Source: Sulfurimonas sp. (GTDB taxonomy: Bacteria > Campylobacterota > Campylobacteria > Campylobacterales > Sulfurimonadaceae). Taken from it: a stretch of 64,000 nucleotides of DNA. The stretch covers positions 6,744-70,743 of the forward strand of contig NZ_JAPHUF010000021.1 of NCBI RefSeq assembly GCF_026196735.1, in the 5' to 3' direction. Both the position numbers and the translations under genes were made by a program. Positions 5,594 to 47,054 of the stretch are shown here, piece by piece. The notes below the pieces were generated by a model that worked only from the letters and a program-made list of their open reading frames with translations, was not told where the DNA came from and did no database searches. Numbering within the stretch: position 1 is the first letter of the stretch; every line of letters begins with the position of its first letter.

Positions 5594-6679
5594 ATGGATG
5601 AGCTTTACATTGGTGTGATGTCAGGCACAAGCCTTGATGGAGTTGATATAGCTCTATGCAAGATAAATTCCGGCTCTTGTGAGCTTGTGTTTTATGCGGA
5701 ATACCCTTTTGATACAAACTTGAAAAATGATATTTTAACTGCTATAAATGGACCGACTACTCTAAAAACCATAGGTGAACTTGACACTCGTTTAGGCAAA
5801 ATCTATGCCGAGTATATTACTGCTTTTATGCGCCATAACAATTTACAAAAAAAAGATATAAGTGCCATTGGACTACACGGTCAAACACTCTGGCATGAAC
5901 CAGACGGTGAGTTTCCTTTTTCAATGCAGCTTGGAAATGCCAACATTATAACAGCACAAACAGGCATTAGTGTTGTCAGTGATTTTAGACAAAAAGATAT
6001 AGCACTTGGCGGTCAAGGAGCACCTTTTGCGCCTGCCTTTCATAAGCAGATGTTCTCAAAACTAAATCGTAATATTGCAGTTGTTAATATTGGCGGCATC
6101 GCAAATCTTAGCATATTGGGAAATCAACTACTTGGCTACGATACGGGAGCTGGAAATGTTTTAATGGATTTTTGGATATCAAAGAAAAAAGGCCTCACTT
6201 ACGACAAAAATGGAGAGTGGGCAAGGTCCGGTCATGTCAGTGCAGAATTATTGGACACAATGCTCCGTGATCCATACTTCTCGAAAAAAGCTCCAAAAAG
6301 TACCGGTCGTGAATATTTCAACGAAAAATGGATAGAGAAGCAACTAGAAGAGTTTGGATATGTTATAGACAAAGATGTTCAAGCAACACTTCTGGAATTT
6401 ACCGCAGTAACTATCGCAAATGAAGTAAAAAAAAGCTCCGTTGAGCTTCTTTTAGTTTGTGGCGGTGGTGCAAAAAACGGTGCTCTTATGGAAAAGCTTC
6501 GCAGAGAGTTCAAAGATATTGAAGTATCTATCAGCGATTATTATGGTTTAAACGGCGACTTTATGGAAGCTATGGCTTTTGCATGGCTTGCGTATAAACG
6601 GATCAACAAAGAAAAAGTAGAGCTTTCATCGGTTACCGGTGCGAGAGAAAATTCTGTTTTGGGTTGTATATATGAATAA
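5594..6679 (+). CDS. anmK: Anhydro-N-acetylmuramic acid kinase
   Basis: GVMSGTSLDGVD, HGQTLWH, DFRQKDIALGGQGAP, NIGGIAN, DTGAGN and PKSTGRE motifs. Confidence 0.95.
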   Translation: MDELYIGVMSGTSLDGVDIALCKINSGSCELVFYAEYPFDTNLKNDILTAINGPTTLKTIGELDTRLGKIYAEYITAFMRHNNLQKKDISAIGLHGQTLWHEPDGEFPFSMQLGNANIITAQTGISVVSDFRQKDIALGGQGAPFAPAFHKQMFSKLNRNIAVVNIGGIANLSILGNQLLGYDTGAGNVLMDFWISKKKGLTYDKNGEWARSGHVSAELLDTMLRDPYFSKKAPKSTGREYFNEKWIEKQLEEFGYVIDKDVQATLLEFTAVTIANEVKKSSVELLLVCGGGAKNGALMEKLRREFKDIEVSISDYYGLNGDFMEAMAFAWLAYKRINKEKVELSSVTGARENSVLGCIYE

Positions 6680-29311: not shown

Positions 29312-31258
29312 CTACTGTACAAATACATGTGGAACAATAAGTGGATATTTTTTCATTTTTCTATAGATATGTTTTCTTACAACTTGGCGAAGATCATTCT
29401 CTAAAGCTCTTGGGTTTTCTATTAGCCCGTCTTTTATATGTAATAAAAAGTGTTCTATAACATCTTCAATCTCTTTTGCAAAGAATTTATCTTGCTTATC
29501 GGCCACCAAACCAAATGTAGTAACTAGCGGCTTAGATAACATTTTAGAGTGTTGTCCATCAACTTGGGCAACAATCATAACAATACCGTCAGTAGCCAGT
29601 TTCTGTCTATCTATAACGATATCATCATCTATTTTATGATTGTTTTGATTATCAATATATGTCTTACCGGTTCTTACCGACTTAACTTTTCTCATATATT
29701 TTGGAGCCACTTCTACAGTATCGCCATCATTCATAATATAAATATTACGCTCAGGAACACCACAAATCATACCCGTCTCTTTATGTCTCATTACATGATT
29801 ATACTCACCGTGGATAGGTAAAAAGAATTTAGGATTAACAAGGCGAAGCATAAGCTTTTGCTCTTCTATAGAAGCGTGACCTGATACATGTATATCTTTT
29901 TCTCTAGAAATACTAGCACCGGCACGCTGTAAGTGGTTTAACATTCCTGAGATTGAACCCTCATTTCCTGGAATAGCACGAGATGAAAGAACAATTAAAT
30001 CTGTTGGCTTAATCTTTACATGCCTGTGTTCACCGATTGACATTCTAAATAGTGCTGAACTAGGCTCACCTTGTGAACCTGTAGTAACTATAAGAACATC
30101 TTTATCGTTCATACCAGAGATCTGATCCGGTTCGACAAAAATAGTTTTTGGCAGCTTTATATAGTCATACTGCATAGCGATTTCAATGTTTCTTTCCATC
30201 GAACGACCAATTACACAAACTTTACGATTATATTTTACACCATACTGAATAGCTTGAAAAACACGATGTATGTTAGACGAGAAAGTAGATAAGATTACTC
30301 TACCTTCAGCTTTTGCAAATACTCTGTCAAGTGCCGGTGCAACACTTAACTCAGATGGAGTAGGTTGTGGATTGTAAGAGTTAGTAGAGTCACTTAAAAG
30401 AGCGAGAACACCTTTGTCACCATAGTAAGCGAGTCTATGTAAGTCTGCCGTATAGCCATCTACCGGAGAATGGTCAATCTTAAAGTCACCCGTGTGGATA
30501 ATTGTACCGGCATCAGTAGTAATTGCTAAAGAAGAACTATCTAAAATAGAGTGAGTCATATGCATCCACTCAATTTTAAAGTCATTTCCTATCTCATAAA
30601 TCTTTCTTTTTACAATTGGATTAAAATGCTTTCTAGCCTCTTTGATATGATGCTCGTCAAACTTGTTACCAATCATTGCAAGCGGCAGAGGTGAAGCATA
30701 TATAGGAAATTGCATCTCTTTATAAAGATATGGCATTGCACCGATATGATCTTCATGTGAGTGAGTAATTACTACCGCTTTAATCTTATCTTTAATCTCT
30801 CTGATATAAGTAAAATCAGGTACCAGTATATCAACACCGTGCATATCTTCATCTGGAAAACTCATACCGACATCAACTAAAATTGCTTCATTTTCTGTTT
30901 CAAATACTGTAATGTTTCCACCGATTTCACCAAGCCCGCCAAGCGGTGTGATACGGATTTTTGCTTTTGAGTTTAAATCTAATTTATAGTGAGGATTTAG
31001 TCTTTGTTTCTGTGCTTCTTGGTTGATACCAACAAATTTTTTAAGATTTTCATCTACCGGTGTACTTTGACGACGACGCCCTCTTCCTCCACCTTTATTT
31101 TTGTTAGGGTTATTGCCGCCCTGAGGCTTGCCACTGTTGTTGTTACGATTCTGATTATTATTTGGTCTACGATTTTGATTAGGTCTTGTTTCTTCTTTTT
31201 TATTACCGTTTACTGCTGGTTTAACACCTTCTTGAGTGTTACCTTTATTGTCTTGCAT
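29312..31258 (-). CDS. rnj: Ribonuclease J with N-terminal low-complexity extension
   Basis: PLGGLGEIG, THSHEDHIG, HTGDFK, GSQGEP and HVSGHA motifs. Confidence 0.96.
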   Translation of the reverse strand: MQDNKGNTQEGVKPAVNGNKKEETRPNQNRRPNNNQNRNNNSGKPQGGNNPNKNKGGGRGRRRQSTPVDENLKKFVGINQEAQKQRLNPHYKLDLNSKAKIRITPLGGLGEIGGNITVFETENEAILVDVGMSFPDEDMHGVDILVPDFTYIREIKDKIKAVVITHSHEDHIGAMPYLYKEMQFPIYASPLPLAMIGNKFDEHHIKEARKHFNPIVKRKIYEIGNDFKIEWMHMTHSILDSSSLAITTDAGTIIHTGDFKIDHSPVDGYTADLHRLAYYGDKGVLALLSDSTNSYNPQPTPSELSVAPALDRVFAKAEGRVILSTFSSNIHRVFQAIQYGVKYNRKVCVIGRSMERNIEIAMQYDYIKLPKTIFVEPDQISGMNDKDVLIVTTGSQGEPSSALFRMSIGEHRHVKIKPTDLIVLSSRAIPGNEGSISGMLNHLQRAGASISREKDIHVSGHASIEEQKLMLRLVNPKFFLPIHGEYNHVMRHKETGMICGVPERNIYIMNDGDTVEVAPKYMRKVKSVRTGKTYIDNQNNHKIDDDIVIDRQKLATDGIVMIVAQVDGQHSKMLSKPLVTTFGLVADKQDKFFAKEIEDVIEHFLLHIKDGLIENPRALENDLRQVVRKHIYRKMKKYPLIVPHVFVQ

Positions 31259-31278
31259 CCAAACTCCTTGTTTATCTT

Positions 31279-32049
31279 TTATATTATTTTTTTATAGAGT
31301 TGGTGATAGTCACTAGTTGAGAGTTGATGAGGACGAATTGTCTGTGTAAATTCTAGTTCATTAAAAACTTCTTGAAGTATCTCTTTATCATAAATCACCG
31401 ATAGATTTTTCATAAGAGTTTTGCGAGGCTGCTTAAATGCAACTCTAAGCATGCCCTCAAAATTCTCATCACTTCTATCAGTTCTTTTTTCAATCAAGAA
31501 TACAGCTGAGTCTATTTTTGGCGGTGGTTCAAAAGCGGTTGGTGGAACCTGCACAACAATATGCGCCTCTCCTACACTTTGAGTTATTACACCCAAAGAC
31601 CCAAATACCTTTTCACCCTCTGTTGCACAAAATTTCTCTGCCACTTCAAGCTGTACCATTACAAGTATATTTTTACATTTTGGATCTGCGAGTGCTTTTA
31701 AGATTATATTTGTTGCGATGTAGTAAGGCAAGTTTGCCACTAAATCGTAATCTTCATCTACTAAACTACTCTGCCAAGTTTCAAGAACATCGCCGCAATT
31801 TATATGCAGCTGCTTGGTTGCGATCTCTTTATCAAATTTTTTTTGTAACAGTTTACACAAATCGGTATCGACCTCAAAAGCTTCTACACTTTTGACATCT
31901 ACTAAATATTTAGTTAAATCACCTAAGCCAGGCCCAATTTCAACGATTTTATTATCATTATTGGGCATCGCTTCGACGATTTTTTGTAAAACAGTCTCAT
32001 CTTTTAAGAAATTTTGTCCAAACTTCTTTTTTGCTACAATTTTATCCAT
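31279..32049 (-). CDS. rsmA: 16S rRNA m6,2A dimethyltransferase
   Basis: KKKFGQNFL, VEIGPGLG and ANLPYYI motifs. Confidence 0.96.
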   Translation of the reverse strand: MDKIVAKKKFGQNFLKDETVLQKIVEAMPNNDNKIVEIGPGLGDLTKYLVDVKSVEAFEVDTDLCKLLQKKFDKEIATKQLHINCGDVLETWQSSLVDEDYDLVANLPYYIATNIILKALADPKCKNILVMVQLEVAEKFCATEGEKVFGSLGVITQSVGEAHIVVQVPPTAFEPPPKIDSAVFLIEKRTDRSDENFEGMLRVAFKQPRKTLMKNLSVIYDKEILQEVFNELEFTQTIRPHQLSTSDYHQLYKKII

Positions 32050-32226
32050 TAGCGGACAGTGTATTATAATTTTGCTTATAATTAGTTAATATCAATAAGA
32101 AATATTAATATTTATATCACATCTTGAGCTTTATTATTTCAAAATATCTATGATTATAACAATAGATAATAATAATTATTGATACTACAATAAATATCAC
32201 ATTACTTTTTTTAATGTAGCTAAAAT

Positions 32227-32246
32227 GATATTTCATTTGAAATATC
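32227..32246. promoter_or_regulatory. 20-bp palindrome (parS-variant-like), copy 1
   Basis: GATATTTCA-TT-TGAAATATC; identical at 35951..35970. Confidence 0.6.
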
Positions 32247-32279
32247 TATCTTGTTTGCAAAAACTAAAATGAAAATATT

Positions 32280-32295
32280 TGTTTCACATGAAACA
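32280..32295. other. parS: parS centromere-like site
   Basis: TGTTTCACATGAAACA, 15/16 match to consensus TGTTTCACGTGAAACA; origin-proximal. Confidence 0.88.
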
Positions 32296-32473
32296 TTTAA
32301 TTTCTTTTATAGCAACTAATATGAAAATACTTATGAAACAAGTGTTTTCATTATTATTCCGTTTTAGCTGCATTAAATAAACTTACATGTAAATAGGCAC
32401 AATAAAAACAATAACCTAAATATAAGCCGCAAAGTGTATAATTGCACTAAATTATAAGAGGCTCTCAACTACC

Positions 32474-33232
32474 ATGAACTATTTTGCTAAAAGAATTATC
32501 CCTTGTCTAGATGTTAAAGATGGTCGTGTTGTAAAAGGGGTAAACTTTGTCGGGCTTAGAGATGCCGGTGATCCTGTTGAAGTTGCAAAGAGATACAACC
32601 AAGAGGGTGCGGATGAACTTACTTTTTTGGATATTACAGCTTCAAGCGATAACCGTGATACAATTGTAGATATCGTAGCTCAAGTGGCGAAAGAAGTTTT
32701 TATACCTCTTACAGTCGGTGGCGGCATTAGAAAGCTTGATGACATATATAAACTCTTAAATGTAGGCTGTGACAAAGTAAGCGTTAACTCTGCAGCGATA
32801 AAAAGACCCGAGCTAATAGACGAGGGTGCAAAACGCTTTGGTTCACAGTGTATTGTCACTGCGATTGATGTTAAAAAAACCGGTGACAGATACAATGTTT
32901 ACTTAAATGGCGGACGAGTTGACACCGGTATAGATGCCGTAGAATGGGCTAAAGAAGTCGTAGAAAGAGGAAGCGGTGAAATACTTCTGACTTCAATGGA
33001 TGCAGATGGTACAAAAGCAGGGTTTGAGCTAAATATTACTCAGCAGATAAGTAGAGCTGTAAATGTTCCCGTTATCGCAAGTGGCGGAGCAGGGACAATG
33101 CAACATATTAAAGAAGCCTTTGAACACGGTGCCGATGCTGCACTTGCCGCGAGTATTTTTCACTATAAAGAGATAGATATTATGGATTTAAAACATTATC
33201 TTCATGACAACAACATACCTGTAAGACTTTAG
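32474..33232 (+). CDS. hisF: Imidazole glycerol phosphate synthase cyclase subunit
   Basis: [36 protein letters not shown] and ALAASIFH motifs. Confidence 0.97.
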
Positions 33233-33308
33233 AGCATCAAGATGCGAGGGCTCTCTGCCGAAGAGAACCAAGCGTTAGCGTAGATAAAGGAATTACTTCC
33301 TTTATCGT
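33233..33308 (+). repeat. Dispersed 76-nt structured intergenic repeat, copy 2
   Basis: 61/76 ungapped identity to 854..929; perfect stem GATAAAGGAA-TTAC-TTCCTTTATC. Confidence 0.85.
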
Positions 33309-33362
33309 TAGAAAAGGGATAAATGGTTCCCTTAAATTTATAAAATAAATTAAAGGAGAAAT

Positions 33363-33908
33363 ATGATTATTTGCGCCGGAAATAATGAAACTTTTGATTT
33401 TGCACAACCAACAGGGGTTGGCTTAATCGAAACAGCAATGAACCTTACAAGACTTTGTCTCTTTGACAAACCTGAGTTTTTACTGTTTGTCGGTTCTGCA
33501 GGTAGTTATGGCAGTTCACAAATATTTGACATTGTTGAGTCAAAAACAGCTTCAAATATTGAACTTGGATTTTTAAATAATGACGCTTACACTCCTTTGG
33601 ATAATGTAATTTCCACTAACATAGATAGCCAAAAAAAAGATGTTATAGTCAATTCTTCGAACTATGTTTCCACAAATGAGGAGCTAACAAAAAAGTTTTT
33701 AAAACTTGGTGTAGGCATAGAAAACATGGAATTTTTCGCGGTTTTGAAAATAGCGCAAGAGTTTGATATTCCTGCTGGGGGTGTATTTTGTATAACTAAC
33801 TATACTAACAAAGATGCTCATGATGATTTTATGAAAAATCATGAAAAGGCAAAAGAACTTTTAACTCTACATGTTAAAAAAAGAATCAAGGAATTGACAG
33901 CAAAATGA
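33363..33908 (+). CDS. Purine nucleoside phosphorylase/MTA nucleosidase family protein
   Basis: GVG, GSAGS, ENMEFFAV and CITNY motifs; position before rlmN is typical of Campylobacterota. Confidence 0.75.
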   Translation: MIICAGNNETFDFAQPTGVGLIETAMNLTRLCLFDKPEFLLFVGSAGSYGSSQIFDIVESKTASNIELGFLNNDAYTPLDNVISTNIDSQKKDVIVNSSNYVSTNEELTKKFLKLGVGIENMEFFAVLKIAQEFDIPAGGVFCITNYTNKDAHDDFMKNHEKAKELLTLHVKKRIKELTAK

Positions 33909-34978
33909 AGCCATCACTTCTAGACTTTACGCAGAAAGAACTTTTGTCTCAAATAAAACCTGCTTTTAGAGTAAAACAGATATTTGGCTGGCTTTATCAT
34001 AACTATGCATCTGACTTTGATGATATGAAAAATATTCCCAAAGCTCTCAAAGAAGAACTTTCTCAAAAATATATAGTAGACCCTCTAAAAATAGTAAATA
34101 AAGAAGAATCAAGTGATGGGACCATAAAGTACCTATTTGAGCTTCAAGATGGCAAAACAATGGAAGCTGTATGGCTTAAAATGAAAGAAACGCAGTTAGA
34201 TGATAAGGGCGAAGTGATTCAAGAAGCAAAATACACTATCTGTGTTTCTACTCAAGTAGGATGTAAAGTAGGGTGTACATTCTGTTTAACTGCAAAAGGT
34301 GGCTTTACAAGAGACTTGACTGCCGGAGAGATAGTAGCTCAAGTTGTTGCACTAAAACGAGATAACGACCATAAACACAATAGAAAAATCAACATTGTCT
34401 ATATGGGCATGGGCGAACCGCTAGACAACCTAGATAATCTTGCAAAAGCTATAGAGATATATAAAGAAGAAGAGGGCTTATGTATATCCGGTAAACGACA
34501 AACAGTCTCTACAAGTGGTTTGAGCAATAAAATAGACCAATTAGGCAAGATGGACTTAGGTGTTCATATCGCTATATCGCTACATGCTGTTGATGATGAG
34601 CTACGCACTGAGCTTATACCTATGAATAAAGCCCACAATATTTCTTCTATTATAGAAGCGGTTAAACGCTTTCCAATTGATACCAGAAAAAGAGTTATGT
34701 TTGAATACTTAGTCATTAAAGATAAAAATGATGATATAGCCTCTGCTAAGAAGCTCGTAAAGCTACTAACAGATATCAAGGCGAAGGTTAACCTCATATA
34801 CTTCAATCCTTATCCTGGTACGACTTACGATAGACCTACAAGAGCTGATATGGTAGCTTTCCAAGAGTATTTAGTCAATCATGGCTTATTATGTACTATA
34901 AGAGACTCTAAAGGCATAGATATCAGTGCAGCATGCGGTCAATTAAAAGAACAAACAGAACAAGGTGAAATAAAATGA
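33905..34978 (+). CDS. rlmN: 23S rRNA m2A2503 methyltransferase
   Basis: CVSTQVGCKVGCTFC, MGMGEP, ISLHA and AACGQL motifs. Confidence 0.97.
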   Translation: MKPSLLDFTQKELLSQIKPAFRVKQIFGWLYHNYASDFDDMKNIPKALKEELSQKYIVDPLKIVNKEESSDGTIKYLFELQDGKTMEAVWLKMKETQLDDKGEVIQEAKYTICVSTQVGCKVGCTFCLTAKGGFTRDLTAGEIVAQVVALKRDNDHKHNRKINIVYMGMGEPLDNLDNLAKAIEIYKEEEGLCISGKRQTVSTSGLSNKIDQLGKMDLGVHIAISLHAVDDELRTELIPMNKAHNISSIIEAVKRFPIDTRKRVMFEYLVIKDKNDDIASAKKLVKLLTDIKAKVNLIYFNPYPGTTYDRPTRADMVAFQEYLVNHGLLCTIRDSKGIDISAACGQLKEQTEQGEIK

Positions 34979-35091
34979 GCTATATAGAGATATTTCAAAT
35001 AGTTTTTTTAATAGTTGTATTTGCAGTTGGCTTGATTGGTTTTATAAAAGCTGCTACAAATGATGATACAGGTGATGACAAGAAACAGTAG
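34975..35091 (+). CDS. 38-aa single-TM microprotein
   Basis: MSYIEIFQIVFLIVVFAVGLIGFIKAATNDDTGDDKKQ; ATGA overlap with the rlmN stop. Confidence 0.6.
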   Translation: MSYIEIFQIVFLIVVFAVGLIGFIKAATNDDTGDDKKQ

Positions 35092-35164
35092 TACAATCTG
35101 TAATCATTTTGAAATTAAAAAAATGATATTATATTGAAAGCGATTTAATTTAAAGGATATAACT

Positions 35165-35404
35165 ATGGCTGTAAAGAAAACAAACACTGATAGAATTAAA
35201 AGAATATATGATTTGTGTGAAGAACATTTTGGTGATATTCGTTTTGTAGGGATTAAATATCATAAAAAAATTGGTTGGATTGCAAAAGCACAGTTTGATG
35301 ATGGATTTGAGAACCTAACTGCTGATGGTGAAACAAGCGTAGAAGCTCTTCGTAATTTAAAAAATCGTGTTAAAAAAATCATCAAGAGATATAACGCGGT
35401 TTAA
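35165..35404 (+). CDS. Hypothetical 79-aa basic protein
   Basis: AAGGA SD, normal codon usage, downstream hairpin. Confidence 0.75.
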   Translation: MAVKKTNTDRIKRIYDLCEEHFGDIRFVGIKYHKKIGWIAKAQFDDGFENLTADGETSVEALRNLKNRVKKIIKRYNAV

Positions 35405-35430
35405 TAAGTGATTTAGTTCACAAATAAGTA

Positions 35431-35459
35431 AAACGACCAACACACCAGGGAGGTCGTTT
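35431..35459 (+). terminator. Hairpin after the 79-aa ORF
   Basis: AAACGACC-13nt-GGTCGTTT. Confidence 0.45.
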
Positions 35460-35901
35460 ATAAGTGTAATAATACCCTACTTTTCTTATAAGAAAATAAT
35501 CTTCGTCATCTTCTACAATAAACTTAAATATAATTTTAGCATTAAAATAATTAATATATTTATTCAAAGTGTGCAGTATTCACACATTGTTCTAAGGTGT
35601 GAATACTGTGAGTTGCTGTCATGTACAAATTTTCAAATTTTCTTATTATTTAAGAACAAATTTATATAAAATTATCCTGAAATCAATATACTTTGAGATA
35701 GCTTAAATGCCTATAATTAGGGGCTTATAGGGATTTAGTTATTTGTAGTTATAATTATATATACTTTGTCTCTATATAATACAATAAGTTATTCACACCT
35801 CATATATTTATACATGAAAACATCTAGCGAAGTAACTAATAATTAAAATAAATATTTTATATATAGTTGTAAATATTCACTAAATTGATTAGTAATAACA
35901 A

Positions 35902-35917
35902 TGTTTCATGTGAAACA
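35902..35917. other. parS: parS site
   Basis: TGTTTCATGTGAAACA, 15/16 to consensus; exact reverse complement of 32280..32295. Confidence 0.88.
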
Positions 35918-35950
35918 AATGTTCTCACTACAGTTCAAATAAACAAGATA

Positions 35951-35970
35951 GATATTTCATTTGAAATATC
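35951..35970. promoter_or_regulatory. 20-bp palindrome (parS-variant-like), copy 2
   Basis: GATATTTCATTTGAAATATC, identical to 32227..32246. Confidence 0.6.
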
Positions 35971-36026
35971 GTTCTAATTACATTAAGCAAACTTTTTTAT
36001 TATAATTCGATAAAGTAACATGTCAT

Positions 36027-36938
36027 TTAGATACTCATACTCTCAAAACATATTTTTTCAAAATCTACATCACTTTTAATATGAAACTTTTCGTTGTAAA
36101 GATCAAACTCCAATTCATTTGCATGCAAAAGTAATCTTGAAGCACCGCTAAGATTAATACGATCTTCTATGCTTAACTCTTTATCTAAAAACCTGACTAT
36201 GTCTTTTTCACTTTGTCCATAAATTGGATCTCCGACTATTGGATGTTTCACATGAAACAAATGTACTCTTATTTGATGTTGTCTTCCGGTAAGTGGCGAA
36301 CACTCTACCAATGTAATATCTTTATCTGCAAAATACTTTAAAGGCTTTATATCAGTTTTGGAGCTTTTACCATCTACATGTACTTTTACTACCATTCTAA
36401 CAATTGCACTCTCATCTTCTTTTCTGAGAAGCGGAGCCTCTATAGATATATCATCTTTTAATTCACCGTGAACCATAGCAAGATACTTCTTTTTCATATC
36501 TCTGTGTTCAAACATCATCTTGATATCTCTTTCACTGTTTTTGTTTTTAGAGCACAACACTAAGCCGCTTGTCTCTTGATCTATTCTATGAGCTATATTG
36601 GCATCTCTACCATACTGATATTTCAATTCATCTATTAAAGAGTAGGGTGTGTTTTTATTTTGCGGATGGATTAACACTCCGCTTGGTTTATCAAATACTA
36701 CAAACTGATCGTATTCTACATGCACATTCAATCCTCTAGTGATTGGCTCAAAATATATATACTCAATTTCTCCTTGAATCTTCTGCGAAGACTTATCCAT
36801 AACTTCGCCATTTATAAGCAAGCGACCTCTGGCTATAAAACGCTGAGCTTCTTTTTGTGTATAGTTCAACTCTTTTATAAAAAAAAGGAAAGCTCTCTGC
36901 TTTTTTTCAACATACATCTTCTTAATTACAAATGGCAA
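36027..36938 (-). CDS. RluA-family pseudouridine synthase
   Basis: DKPSG, HRIDQETSG (catalytic Asp), KYLA and TGRQHQIRVH motifs. Confidence 0.92.
   Translation of the reverse strand: MPFVIKKMYVEKKQRAFLFFIKELNYTQKEAQRFIARGRLLINGEVMDKSSQKIQGEIEYIYFEPITRGLNVHVEYDQFVVFDKPSGVLIHPQNKNTPYSLIDELKYQYGRDANIAHRIDQETSGLVLCSKNKNSERDIKMMFEHRDMKKKYLAMVHGELKDDISIEAPLLRKEDESAIVRMVVKVHVDGKSSKTDIKPLKYFADKDITLVECSPLTGRQHQIRVHLFHVKHPIVGDPIYGQSEKDIVRFLDKELSIEDRINLSGASRLLLHANELEFDLYNEKFHIKSDVDFEKICFESMSI
36244..36259. other. parS: parS site inside a coding sequence
   Basis: TGTTTCACATGAAACA, encoding (L)FHVK(H) on the minus strand. Confidence 0.75.
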
Positions 36939-37040
36939 ATCAATCCCTTTTAATCATTCTCTTACTATAAGTTTAGTAGAATAAACAACTTAATTATGTG
37001 CGAATTTTAGCATAAACAATAATCATTAAAGGCAATAAAT

Positions 37041-38369
37041 ATGATCGATAGATATTCACGAGAAGAGATGGCATCAAAATGGACACAGCATGCAAGATAT
37101 GCTGCGTGGCTAGAAGTAGAAAAAGCTGCAGTAAAAGCTTGGGCAAAACTTGGAAAAATTCCTCAAGATGATGCAGACAAAATTGTAAAAAATGCAACAT
37201 TCTCTGTAGAACGAATAGAAGAGATTGAGGCAGTTACTAAACATGATCTTATTGCTTTTAACACAAGTGTTTCAGAGAGCTTAGGTGAAGAGTCAAGATG
37301 GTTTCATTATGGAATGACTAGTTCTGATGCGGTTGATACCGGTGTAGCGCTTCAAATGAGAGACTCTTTAAACATTATCATTGATGATGTAAAGATGTTG
37401 ATGGAATCTATCAAAAAGCGTGCAGAGGAGCACAAGATGACTCTTATGGTTGGGCGTAGTCATGGAATCCACGGCGAGCCTATAACTTTTGGTCTGACTT
37501 TAGCTGTATGGTATGATGAAGTAGCTCGTCACCTTCTAAATCTTGAGCAAACTATGGAGGTTATTGCAGTGGGACAAATCTCCGGAGCTATGGGTAACTT
37601 TGCTCATGCACCACTTGAGTTGGAAGAGTATGCAATGGCTGAACTTGGATTAAAACCAGAGCCTTGTTCAAACCAGGTTGTGCATCGTGATCGCTATGCA
37701 AGACTTGCTACTGCTTTAGCACTACTTGCTTCCTCGGTTGAAAAGTTTGCAGTTCAAGTTAGACACCTACAAAGAACAGAAGTATATGAGGCTGAAGAGT
37801 TTTTTGCAAAAGGTCAAAAAGGCTCATCCGCAATGCCTCACAAAAGAAACCCTATACTTACTGAAAACATCACAGGTTTAGCAAGAATTATTAGAGCTTA
37901 CGCAGCACCGGCTATGGAAAATGTAGCACTGTGGCATGAGCGCGATATCTCTCACTCATCTACTGAAAGATTTTGGTTACCGGATGCATTTATTACAATG
38001 GATTTTATGCTTCACCGCATGAACAATGTAATTGCTAACCTAACAGTATTTCCAGATAATATGATGAAAAATCTAAACCTTACCGGAGGATTAGTTTTCT
38101 CTCAAAGAGTTTTACTTGAACTTCCTCTACAAGGTGTAAGCCGTGAAGATGCTTACAAAATTGTACAGAGAAACGCTATGAAAGTTTGGCAAGAGATACA
38201 ACAAGGCAAGCCAACTACAAATGAAAAAGGCGAGAGTTTGTATCTTAACCATTTGTTAGCGGATGAAGAATTGAGAAATTCTTTGAATGAAGAACAGATT
38301 CGTGAGTGTTTTAACTATGATTACTATACAAAAAATGTAGACAACATTTTCAAAAGAGTTTTTAAATAA
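37041..38369 (+). CDS. purB: Adenylosuccinate lyase
   Basis: TKHD, GRSHGIH and GSSAMPHKRNP motifs. Confidence 0.97.
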   Translation: MIDRYSREEMASKWTQHARYAAWLEVEKAAVKAWAKLGKIPQDDADKIVKNATFSVERIEEIEAVTKHDLIAFNTSVSESLGEESRWFHYGMTSSDAVDTGVALQMRDSLNIIIDDVKMLMESIKKRAEEHKMTLMVGRSHGIHGEPITFGLTLAVWYDEVARHLLNLEQTMEVIAVGQISGAMGNFAHAPLELEEYAMAELGLKPEPCSNQVVHRDRYARLATALALLASSVEKFAVQVRHLQRTEVYEAEEFFAKGQKGSSAMPHKRNPILTENITGLARIIRAYAAPAMENVALWHERDISHSSTERFWLPDAFITMDFMLHRMNNVIANLTVFPDNMMKNLNLTGGLVFSQRVLLELPLQGVSREDAYKIVQRNAMKVWQEIQQGKPTTNEKGESLYLNHLLADEELRNSLNEEQIRECFNYDYYTKNVDNIFKRVFK

Positions 38370-46800: not shown

Positions 46801-47054
46801 TTAGGAATCCTTTTTTATTTATTAAAATACTAATAGCAAGCTTGATACCATATTTTAGTTTCATAATATTATTCACACTTAATAAAATTAGTTATTCACA
46901 TTAAAATGCTCAAGCAAACAAGGGTTTTTTGTTGCTTATAAGTTCACAGCTATAGGCATTGTCATAATGTGACCAGTGATGACTTAACAATACTTTATGT
47001 TATAAAAAGATATTATTCACATTTAATTAACTTTACGAGGTTTTGTGTGAATAT
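46801..47054. other. oriC1: DnaA-box cluster upstream of dnaA
   Basis: TTATTCACA at 46869, 46892 and 47013; AAGTTCACA at about 46940; reverse TGTGAATAT at 47046..47054. Confidence 0.8.

Follow-up and report, generated by a model that had tools for sequence, protein, structure and literature searches.

The closest described counterparts of the element reported here are the origin-proximal parS clusters of bacterial chromosomes, such as those of B.subtilis (Spo0J/parS), C.crescentus and H.pylori (Spo0J-parS, PDB 4UMK). Our element lies in a stretch of 64,000 nucleotides from a Sulfurimonas sp. (GCF_026196735.1, contig NZ_JAPHUF010000021.1, positions 6,744 to 70,743; hereafter the window, in whose numbering positions are given). 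It consists of two inverted copies of a module, each containing a parS and a second palindrome. With the known clusters it shares a 16-bp palindrome matching the consensus at 15 of 16 positions, the presence of only a few sites within 15 kb of oriC, an operon of the soj-spo0J type and the parS-type specificity residues of ParB. In contrast to them, two of its three sites carry a symmetric A:T variant of parS 51 bp outward, and the unit is duplicated in inverted orientation between spacers 3.6 kb apart, with flanks that appear to evolve by duplication, half-site deletion and inter-locus exchange. A literature search on parS in Sulfurimonas found no report. Our analysis indicates that the second palindrome, in an ordinary ParABS cluster, is probably a relic or no more than a weak auxiliary site for ParB.

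The two inverted copies had been described in a first-pass annotation of the window, and they are real. In a repeat search they were recovered as arms of 92 nt with 80% complementarity (Table 1). When copy 1 was compared with the reverse complement of copy 2, the identity was distributed unevenly over the segments. The parS is the same in both copies (16/16), with 15 of 16 positions matching the consensus TGTTTCACGTGAAACA, as annotated. The 20-mer palindrome GATATTTCA-NN-TGAAATATC matches at 18 of 20 positions, the only mismatches being the two centre bases, and both 20-mers are identical when each is read on the + strand. The adjoining 10-mer TATCTTGTTT is conserved completely (10/10). The left flank matches at 15 of 21 positions and the spacer at 13 of 23, so that the annotated agreement of the 10-mer and the palindrome holds and that of the spacer (14/23) was one too high. 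Beyond the arms, identity between the two sites is about 40%. The palindrome centre is 51 bp from the parS centre in both copies, again as annotated (32236.5/32287.5 and 35909.5/35960.5), and in each arm the palindrome lies outward of the parS pair. With copy 1 as the query, blastn-short against the whole genome found copy 2 (E=2.6e-6) and nothing else; a dispersed repeat or miniature inverted-repeat transposable element was therefore rejected. Two further assemblies of the species (GCA_026196365.1, GCA_026196075.1) contain identical modules in the same arrangement. An assembly artefact, which the annotation had considered unlikely, is thereby excluded.

The module is part of the only ParABS centromere cluster of the chromosome, which is of the ordinary origin-proximal kind. 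In the window, parS was found three times at up to three mismatches (0.45 expected) and the second palindrome twice (20-mer; 0.03 expected). A scan of the whole 2.19-Mb assembly for both motifs returned the same three parS (up to two mismatches) and two second palindromes, all within a 4-kb stretch. All three parS match the consensus at 15 of 16 positions. The annotation had counted the two parS of the modules and missed the third, which is embedded in an rluD-like coding sequence (...HLFHVKHPIVGDPIYGQ...) and occupies the same codons in every member of the genus examined. Location of parS inside coding sequence is also common in Bacillus. With dnaA at about 47.3 kb, the cluster is 11-15 kb from oriC, the usual position of a chromosomal centromere. 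Besides the consensus palindrome (TGTTNCACGTGAAACA) and this position, the class is marked by a cognate ParA-ParB pair with the R...G residues and by orthologous sites in relatives, and both were found.

These orthologous sites reveal where the second palindrome comes from. In about 20 members of the genus (relatives are cited by our working labels, a G or L with a number), the ksgA-hisF spacer contains a canonical parS and rluD another, at the same codons throughout, with gene order and orientation as in the window; several have an additional parS just past the 3' end of rluD. A group of species that are about 82-85% identical to the window in hisF, pnp and rlmN shares a unit of flank, site A, 35-nt spacer and site B. 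For site A, both G024 and L180 have a canonical parS; the sequence of G024 is TTTAATGTAGCTAGAACAA-TGTTTCATGTGAAACA-TCTATCTTGCTTGG, where the window reads TTTAATGTAGCTAAAATGA-TATTTCATTTGAAATA-TCTATCTTGTTTGC. At the second locus, near rluD, the relatives have a single parS. Its left flank resembles that of parS-2 of the window, its right flank (TTATTCTAAGTAGATGAA in G024, GTTCTAACTAGATTAA in L242) that of the window palindrome. Since the corresponding position in relatives is taken by a canonical parS between the same flanks, the second palindrome is, judging from this alignment, a mutated former parS. In the simplest reading, the window would differ from a relative by the tandem duplication of 51 bp comprising parS and spacer. 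L239, the nearest relative as judged by KsgA (97%), lacks the palindrome and has only one parS. The window has a complete parS at site B. In G024, L180 and L148 this site is only a half-site, with 7 nt missing, and what G181 has, as does the remnant of a further unit in the window, is the opposite half; in the window each spacer locus contains two to three units.

A related species, L242 (JGI 3300032212, Ga0316207_10000273), has amplified the unit at the same two places. Its ksgA-hisF spacer contains 6.9 tandem copies of a 44-nt unit of half-parS and spacer, 98% identical to each other, and this array (within 5948-6500) ends in one full parS. About two copies of the unit, inverted, adjoin the parS of the spacer near rluD (within 2377-2998). 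Iterated plasmid centromeres such as F sopC (12 repeats of 43 bp) likewise consist of a site for the partition protein and a fixed spacer; here, in contrast, the location is chromosomal and most units carry a half or mutated parS. When the flanks of the two parS loci were compared within each genome, significant similarity, inverted in both cases, was confined to the window (score 39; null maximum 20) and L242 (98; null maximum 15). Inverted sharing of lineage-specific sequence between the two loci has therefore arisen at least twice.

Inverted repeats of this kind raise the possibility that the interval between them (32298-35899, hisF to the gene of the 79-residue protein) is an invertible segment, as the annotation had suggested. 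The 92-nt repeat does bracket the interval, and the repeats of L242 are longer and 98% identical. However, the longest perfect run in the window is 20-30 nt at 80% identity overall, and flipping would reconnect no promoter. The modules are surrounded by housekeeping genes, and neither a recombinase, whose absence the annotation had already stated, nor a mobile element is among them. Moreover, the three assemblies of the species and about 25 relatives, including L242, all have the same gene order and orientation. Inversion is thus extremely improbable, and the 3.6-kb interval is not a DNA switch.

The history that we propose for the modules would have begun with a tandem duplication of 51 bp, consisting of parS (16 bp) and the 35-bp spacer, which would have produced a redundant pair. 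Symmetric mutation of the outer parS (G2>A, C15>T, centre CG>TT) could then have turned it into another perfect palindrome, extended by a further symmetric pair on either side. By non-reciprocal exchange, either gene conversion or template switching, the unit may have been copied in inverted orientation between the two loci, an exchange possibly seeded by the identical palindromic parS. L242 would have undergone a like exchange independently, with its array of half-parS units. In the present cluster a single canonical ParB would load as a CTP (cytidine triphosphate) clamp at the three intact parS. The annotation had taken the 51-bp spacing as a sign of helical phasing between a strong and a weak ParB site. 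The spacing equals, however, the duplicated unit in length (16 bp of site and 35 bp of spacer); being inherited, it is no evidence of helical phasing.

Whether ParB could read the altered site depends on its specificity residues. The genome has a single ParB-family gene (contig C13:758-1603; Pfam ParB_N and HTH_ParB, tblastn), which adjoins a ParA-like gene. Its product of 281 residues is nearest to H.pylori Spo0J (E=1.7e-72). In HMMER alignments with Spo0J of H.pylori (4UMK), B.subtilis (6SDK) and T.thermophilus (1VZ0) and with Noc (7OL9), the specificity positions are R,T,Q,G, as opposed to Q,K,K,R in Noc. Arg173 hydrogen-bonds guanine 1 of parS, whereas Gln at this position reads adenine 1; R173 and G201 are kept in all ParB orthologues, and binding is promiscuous only with a Lys at either 179 or 184 (Jalal et al. 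2020, PMC7383237). The ParB of the window genome has no Lys at the equivalents of 179 and 184. The core of the palindrome, TATTTCATTTGAAATA, has neither guanine at position 2 nor cytosine at position 15, and 172 other 16-mers of the genome are as close to parS (4 mismatches). Because of these residues and the lost guanine, ParB should bind the palindrome poorly. Of the composite centromere element that the annotation had proposed, the centromere cluster and the relationship of the palindrome to parS are real; that ParB reads both sites is doubtful. R,T,Q,G are invariant in nine Sulfurimonas species with or without the palindrome, including the other one that has it, and co-variation of ParB with the palindrome was rejected on this ground.

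As an alternative reader the annotation had considered a second ParB-like or Noc-like protein. ParB_N and HTH_ParB gave one match each above the cut-off and tblastn with ParB revealed no second ParB/Noc paralogue at E<1, so the palindrome is not the site of such a protein. Formally, its core is indeed intermediate between parS and the Noc-binding site (NBS) of Bacillota (TATTTCCCGGGAAATA; Jalal et al. 2020, PMC7383237), as annotated: it has A at position 2 (position 1 in their numbering), like NBS, and lies beside parS, but it has A instead of C at the second specificity position and TT instead of CG at the centre. A two-protein system of the Noc/NBS type was rejected, since the genome has no Noc-type paralogue and only two sites, both beside parS, instead of dozens over the chromosome. 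No Noc is known from Campylobacterota.

The second palindrome is rare even among close relatives. A composite like the one annotated (parS or palindrome, 25-45 nt, parS) is not kept in the genus: it was found in none of the 193 other species (0/150 in a first scan). The 16-bp core alone matched in 27 other genomes of the genus, compared with 15 for a control pattern, and the matches outside the window are in unrelated, mostly coding, contexts with one exception. In this one species of the 193 (G181, GCA_021648285.1), the intact palindrome lies beside parS, on the ksgA side of the spacer (TAGAACGA-TATTTCAAATGAAATA-CCTAT), at a distance of 50 bp from half a parS and of 97 bp from AGTTTCACGTGAAACT. 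At locus 2 of L242 a decayed orthologue, GACGTCTCATCTTAAATATC, is present. Since the palindrome is decayed there and absent from most relatives, these data show that the site is dispensable. A search for the 20-mer in 185k species genomes gave 97 scattered, chance-like matches, none of them a further case of this arrangement. Of two metagenome scans, the first found nothing and the second 45 matches, all in unrelated, coding-looking contexts. As a separate observation, an uncultured Tenericutes (UMGS1613, USDJ01000001.1, 1-600; L122) has five perfect parS within 300 nt and, 8 nt past the last, a 22-bp palindrome, AGATATTTCATATGAAATATCT, which is perfect and shares its arms with the second palindrome of the window.

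Several observations weigh against a mere relic or weak ParB site. The palindrome stayed intact while neighbouring bases diverged. When left flank and spacer were taken as neutral (64% identity), agreement of the arms between the window copies (18/18) had P ~3e-4 and agreement of the core between window copy 2 and G181 (16/16) P ~7e-4; the 30-nt block differed from the rest in Fisher's test (0.005). A relic would account for such conservation less well than a site with a dedicated reader. The symmetric changes and the 9-nt arms, longer than those of parS, suggest a dimer with a different preference, and a ParB that requires G at position 2 would not select A:T there. Taken together this argues for constraint on the palindrome, as far as can be judged from three copies; the tests rest on very few lineages. 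Furthermore, the exchange from which the two window copies arose may also have maintained their similarity. Exchange across species boundaries is likewise plausible, as ksgA is 92-96% identical where neighbouring genes are 82-85% identical.

A possible interpretation of the conservation is that another dimeric DNA-binding protein, outside the ParB/Noc family, uses the palindrome as its operator. Such a protein could set up a roadblock or boundary that ParB clamps meet as they slide, or it could assist the partition complex as a cofactor. A perfect 9+9 palindrome is kept in three copies and two species despite diverged spacers, and the symmetric G>A / C>T change removes the very base that ParB reads. 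Both copies are placed outward of the parS pair, and the site occurs nowhere else in the genome, as expected of a dedicated parS partner. Yet no candidate protein was identified, and such a boundary would leave out the third parS (36244). In 192 of the 193 other species the site is missing, and in L242 it has decayed, so that no conserved factor depends on it; relatives hold a plain parS in the same block with the same flanks. We therefore regard such an operator as unlikely.

The palindrome could also act as RNA. A short transcript would start at promoter-like hexamers upstream of each module and end at the hairpin followed by UAUCUUGUUU; in copy 2, 57-76 nt past the rluD stop codon, the hairpin would in addition terminate rluD transcription and shield parS from read-through. 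Promoter-like sites are present upstream of both modules in the same relative orientation (32163-32191 on the + strand; 36026-35999 on the - strand, 11/12), the predicted fold is -7.2 kcal/mol (z=-4.0), and the stem is conserved while the loop differs (UU or AA). However, any palindrome folds, and this stem is weak, with A-U pairs only. A terminator scan made no call, and the number of promoter-like sites (21) does not exceed that of shuffled sequence (22.9). G181 does not share the U-rich tail, no gene precedes copy 1 on its own strand, and there was no Rfam match at E<=1. This explanation is thus very unlikely.

What remains is a palindrome without the guanine that the conserved Arg reads, and therefore probably either a low-affinity auxiliary site or a relic. 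Within this interpretation, we give a little better than an even chance to a slowly decaying relic whose copies are kept alike by exchange between them, and a little less than an even chance to a low-affinity auxiliary ParB site. It seems improbable from the sequence data that TATTTCA-NN-TGAAATA is a functional second centromere-associated site derived from the duplicated parS. In that case it would be read either by canonical ParB, with low affinity and cooperatively, or by an unrelated protein recruited at the outer edge of the partition complex, and the G1>A switch would be the one that separates parS from the Noc site of Firmicutes.

Table 1. Positions of the modules, parS sites and DnaA boxes in the window
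Feature	Position	Strand	Basis and remarks
Module copy 1	32206..32297	+	ksgA-hisF spacer; left flank, second palindrome, 10-mer, spacer, parS; inverted repeat and alignment with homologous units of three other species
Second palindrome, copy 1, GATATTTCA-TT-TGAAATATC, 16-bp core TATTTCATTTGAAATA	32227..32246	.	putative mutated former parS; parS of G024 has the same flanks
10-mer TATCTTGTTT	32247..32256	+	10/10 between copies, 9/10 in G024, not conserved in G181 or L180
parS-1 TGTTTCACATGAAACA	32280..32295	.	15/16 to consensus; presumed ParB loading site; parS in the ksgA-hisF spacer conserved across the genus
Remnant of a further unit	32314..32358	+	direct repeat and k-mer matches to G024; string ATGAAAACACTTGTTTCATAAGTA found also in G181
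Remnant: direct repeat of spacer end	32314-32332		
Remnant: half parS ATGAAACA	32333-32340		
Remnant: inverted spacer end	32341-32358		
Inverted copy of module left flank, TTTAATGCAGCTAAAACGG read on - strand	32359..32383	-	in relatives adjoins a canonical parS, which is missing in the window
Module copy 2	35900..35991	-	spacer between the gene of the 79-residue protein and the rluD 3' end; inverted relative to copy 1
parS-2 TGTTTCATGTGAAACA	35902..35917	.	motif scan
10-mer AAACAAGATA of module copy 2	35941-35950		
Second palindrome, copy 2, GATATTTCATTTGAAATATC	35951..35970	.	decayed orthologue in L242
parS-3	36244..36259	.	inside coding sequence of RluA/RluD-family pseudouridine synthase (36027-36938, - strand)
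Three exact TTATTCACA DnaA boxes	46869..47021	+	directly upstream of dnaA (oriC)

The housekeeping genes around the modules are arranged as follows: rnj (-), ksgA (-), module 1, hisF, a PNP_UDP-family gene and rlmN (+); then a membrane peptide of 38 residues, a conserved protein of 79 residues and 620 bp of non-coding DNA ending with module 2; and finally the pseudouridine synthase gene (-) with parS-3, purB and nrdA. The nucleotide sequence of ksgA (31279-32049) is 92-96% identical to that of species whose adjacent hisF, pnp, rlmN and rluD are at 80-85%, which suggests unusually strong constraint or recent gene flow between species. The hydrophobic 38-residue peptide (34975-35091) overlaps the rlmN stop codon. 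It is conserved in relatives (e. g. G012, L145-L148), as is the 79-residue protein (35165-35404), for which no Pfam match was found.

The 620-bp spacer (35405-36026) contains blocks conserved across at least six species, with orthologous spacers in L147, L148, L179, L180, L242 and L244. A hairpin, AAACGACC...GGTCGTTT, follows the gene of the 79-residue protein. The other blocks are two sequences that resemble DnaA boxes and are inverted relative to each other, GTGCATTATTCACACATTGT...GTGAATAA (window boxes at 35576 and 35598), and a further AAAGTTATTCACA 100-150 nt before parS (exact box at 35789). Together the blocks form a conserved DnaA-box cluster 11 kb from dnaA.

In the spacer between hisF and the PNP_UDP-family gene, an element of about 120 nt (33233-33362) is richer in G+C and has internal hairpins. 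The genome contains at least five copies of it (72-78% identity), among them one at about 854-977 of the window and others on contigs C11, C7, C4 and C17, and other contigs of relatives contain matches at 79-85%. The element is no tRNA, and Rfam gave no match for it; over 31000-37500 as a whole, neither the tRNA search nor the Rfam search found anything.

What the locus means depends on the role of the palindrome. If it is only a redundant former parS, the cluster is an ordinary origin-proximal centromere with a clear small-scale history, in which a site was duplicated in tandem, the spare mutated symmetrically, and sequence was exchanged repeatedly between parS loci 3.6 kb apart. This history would mainly be useful as an example of the turnover of parS clusters between closely related species. 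If, on the other hand, the palindrome is a functional second site, it would represent a natural, recent and still polymorphic diversification of a partition site before any paralogous reader exists. Specific binding to it would mean that the change of the DNA site (G1>A) precedes the change of the reader, the opposite of the order usually assumed for the split of ParB and Noc.

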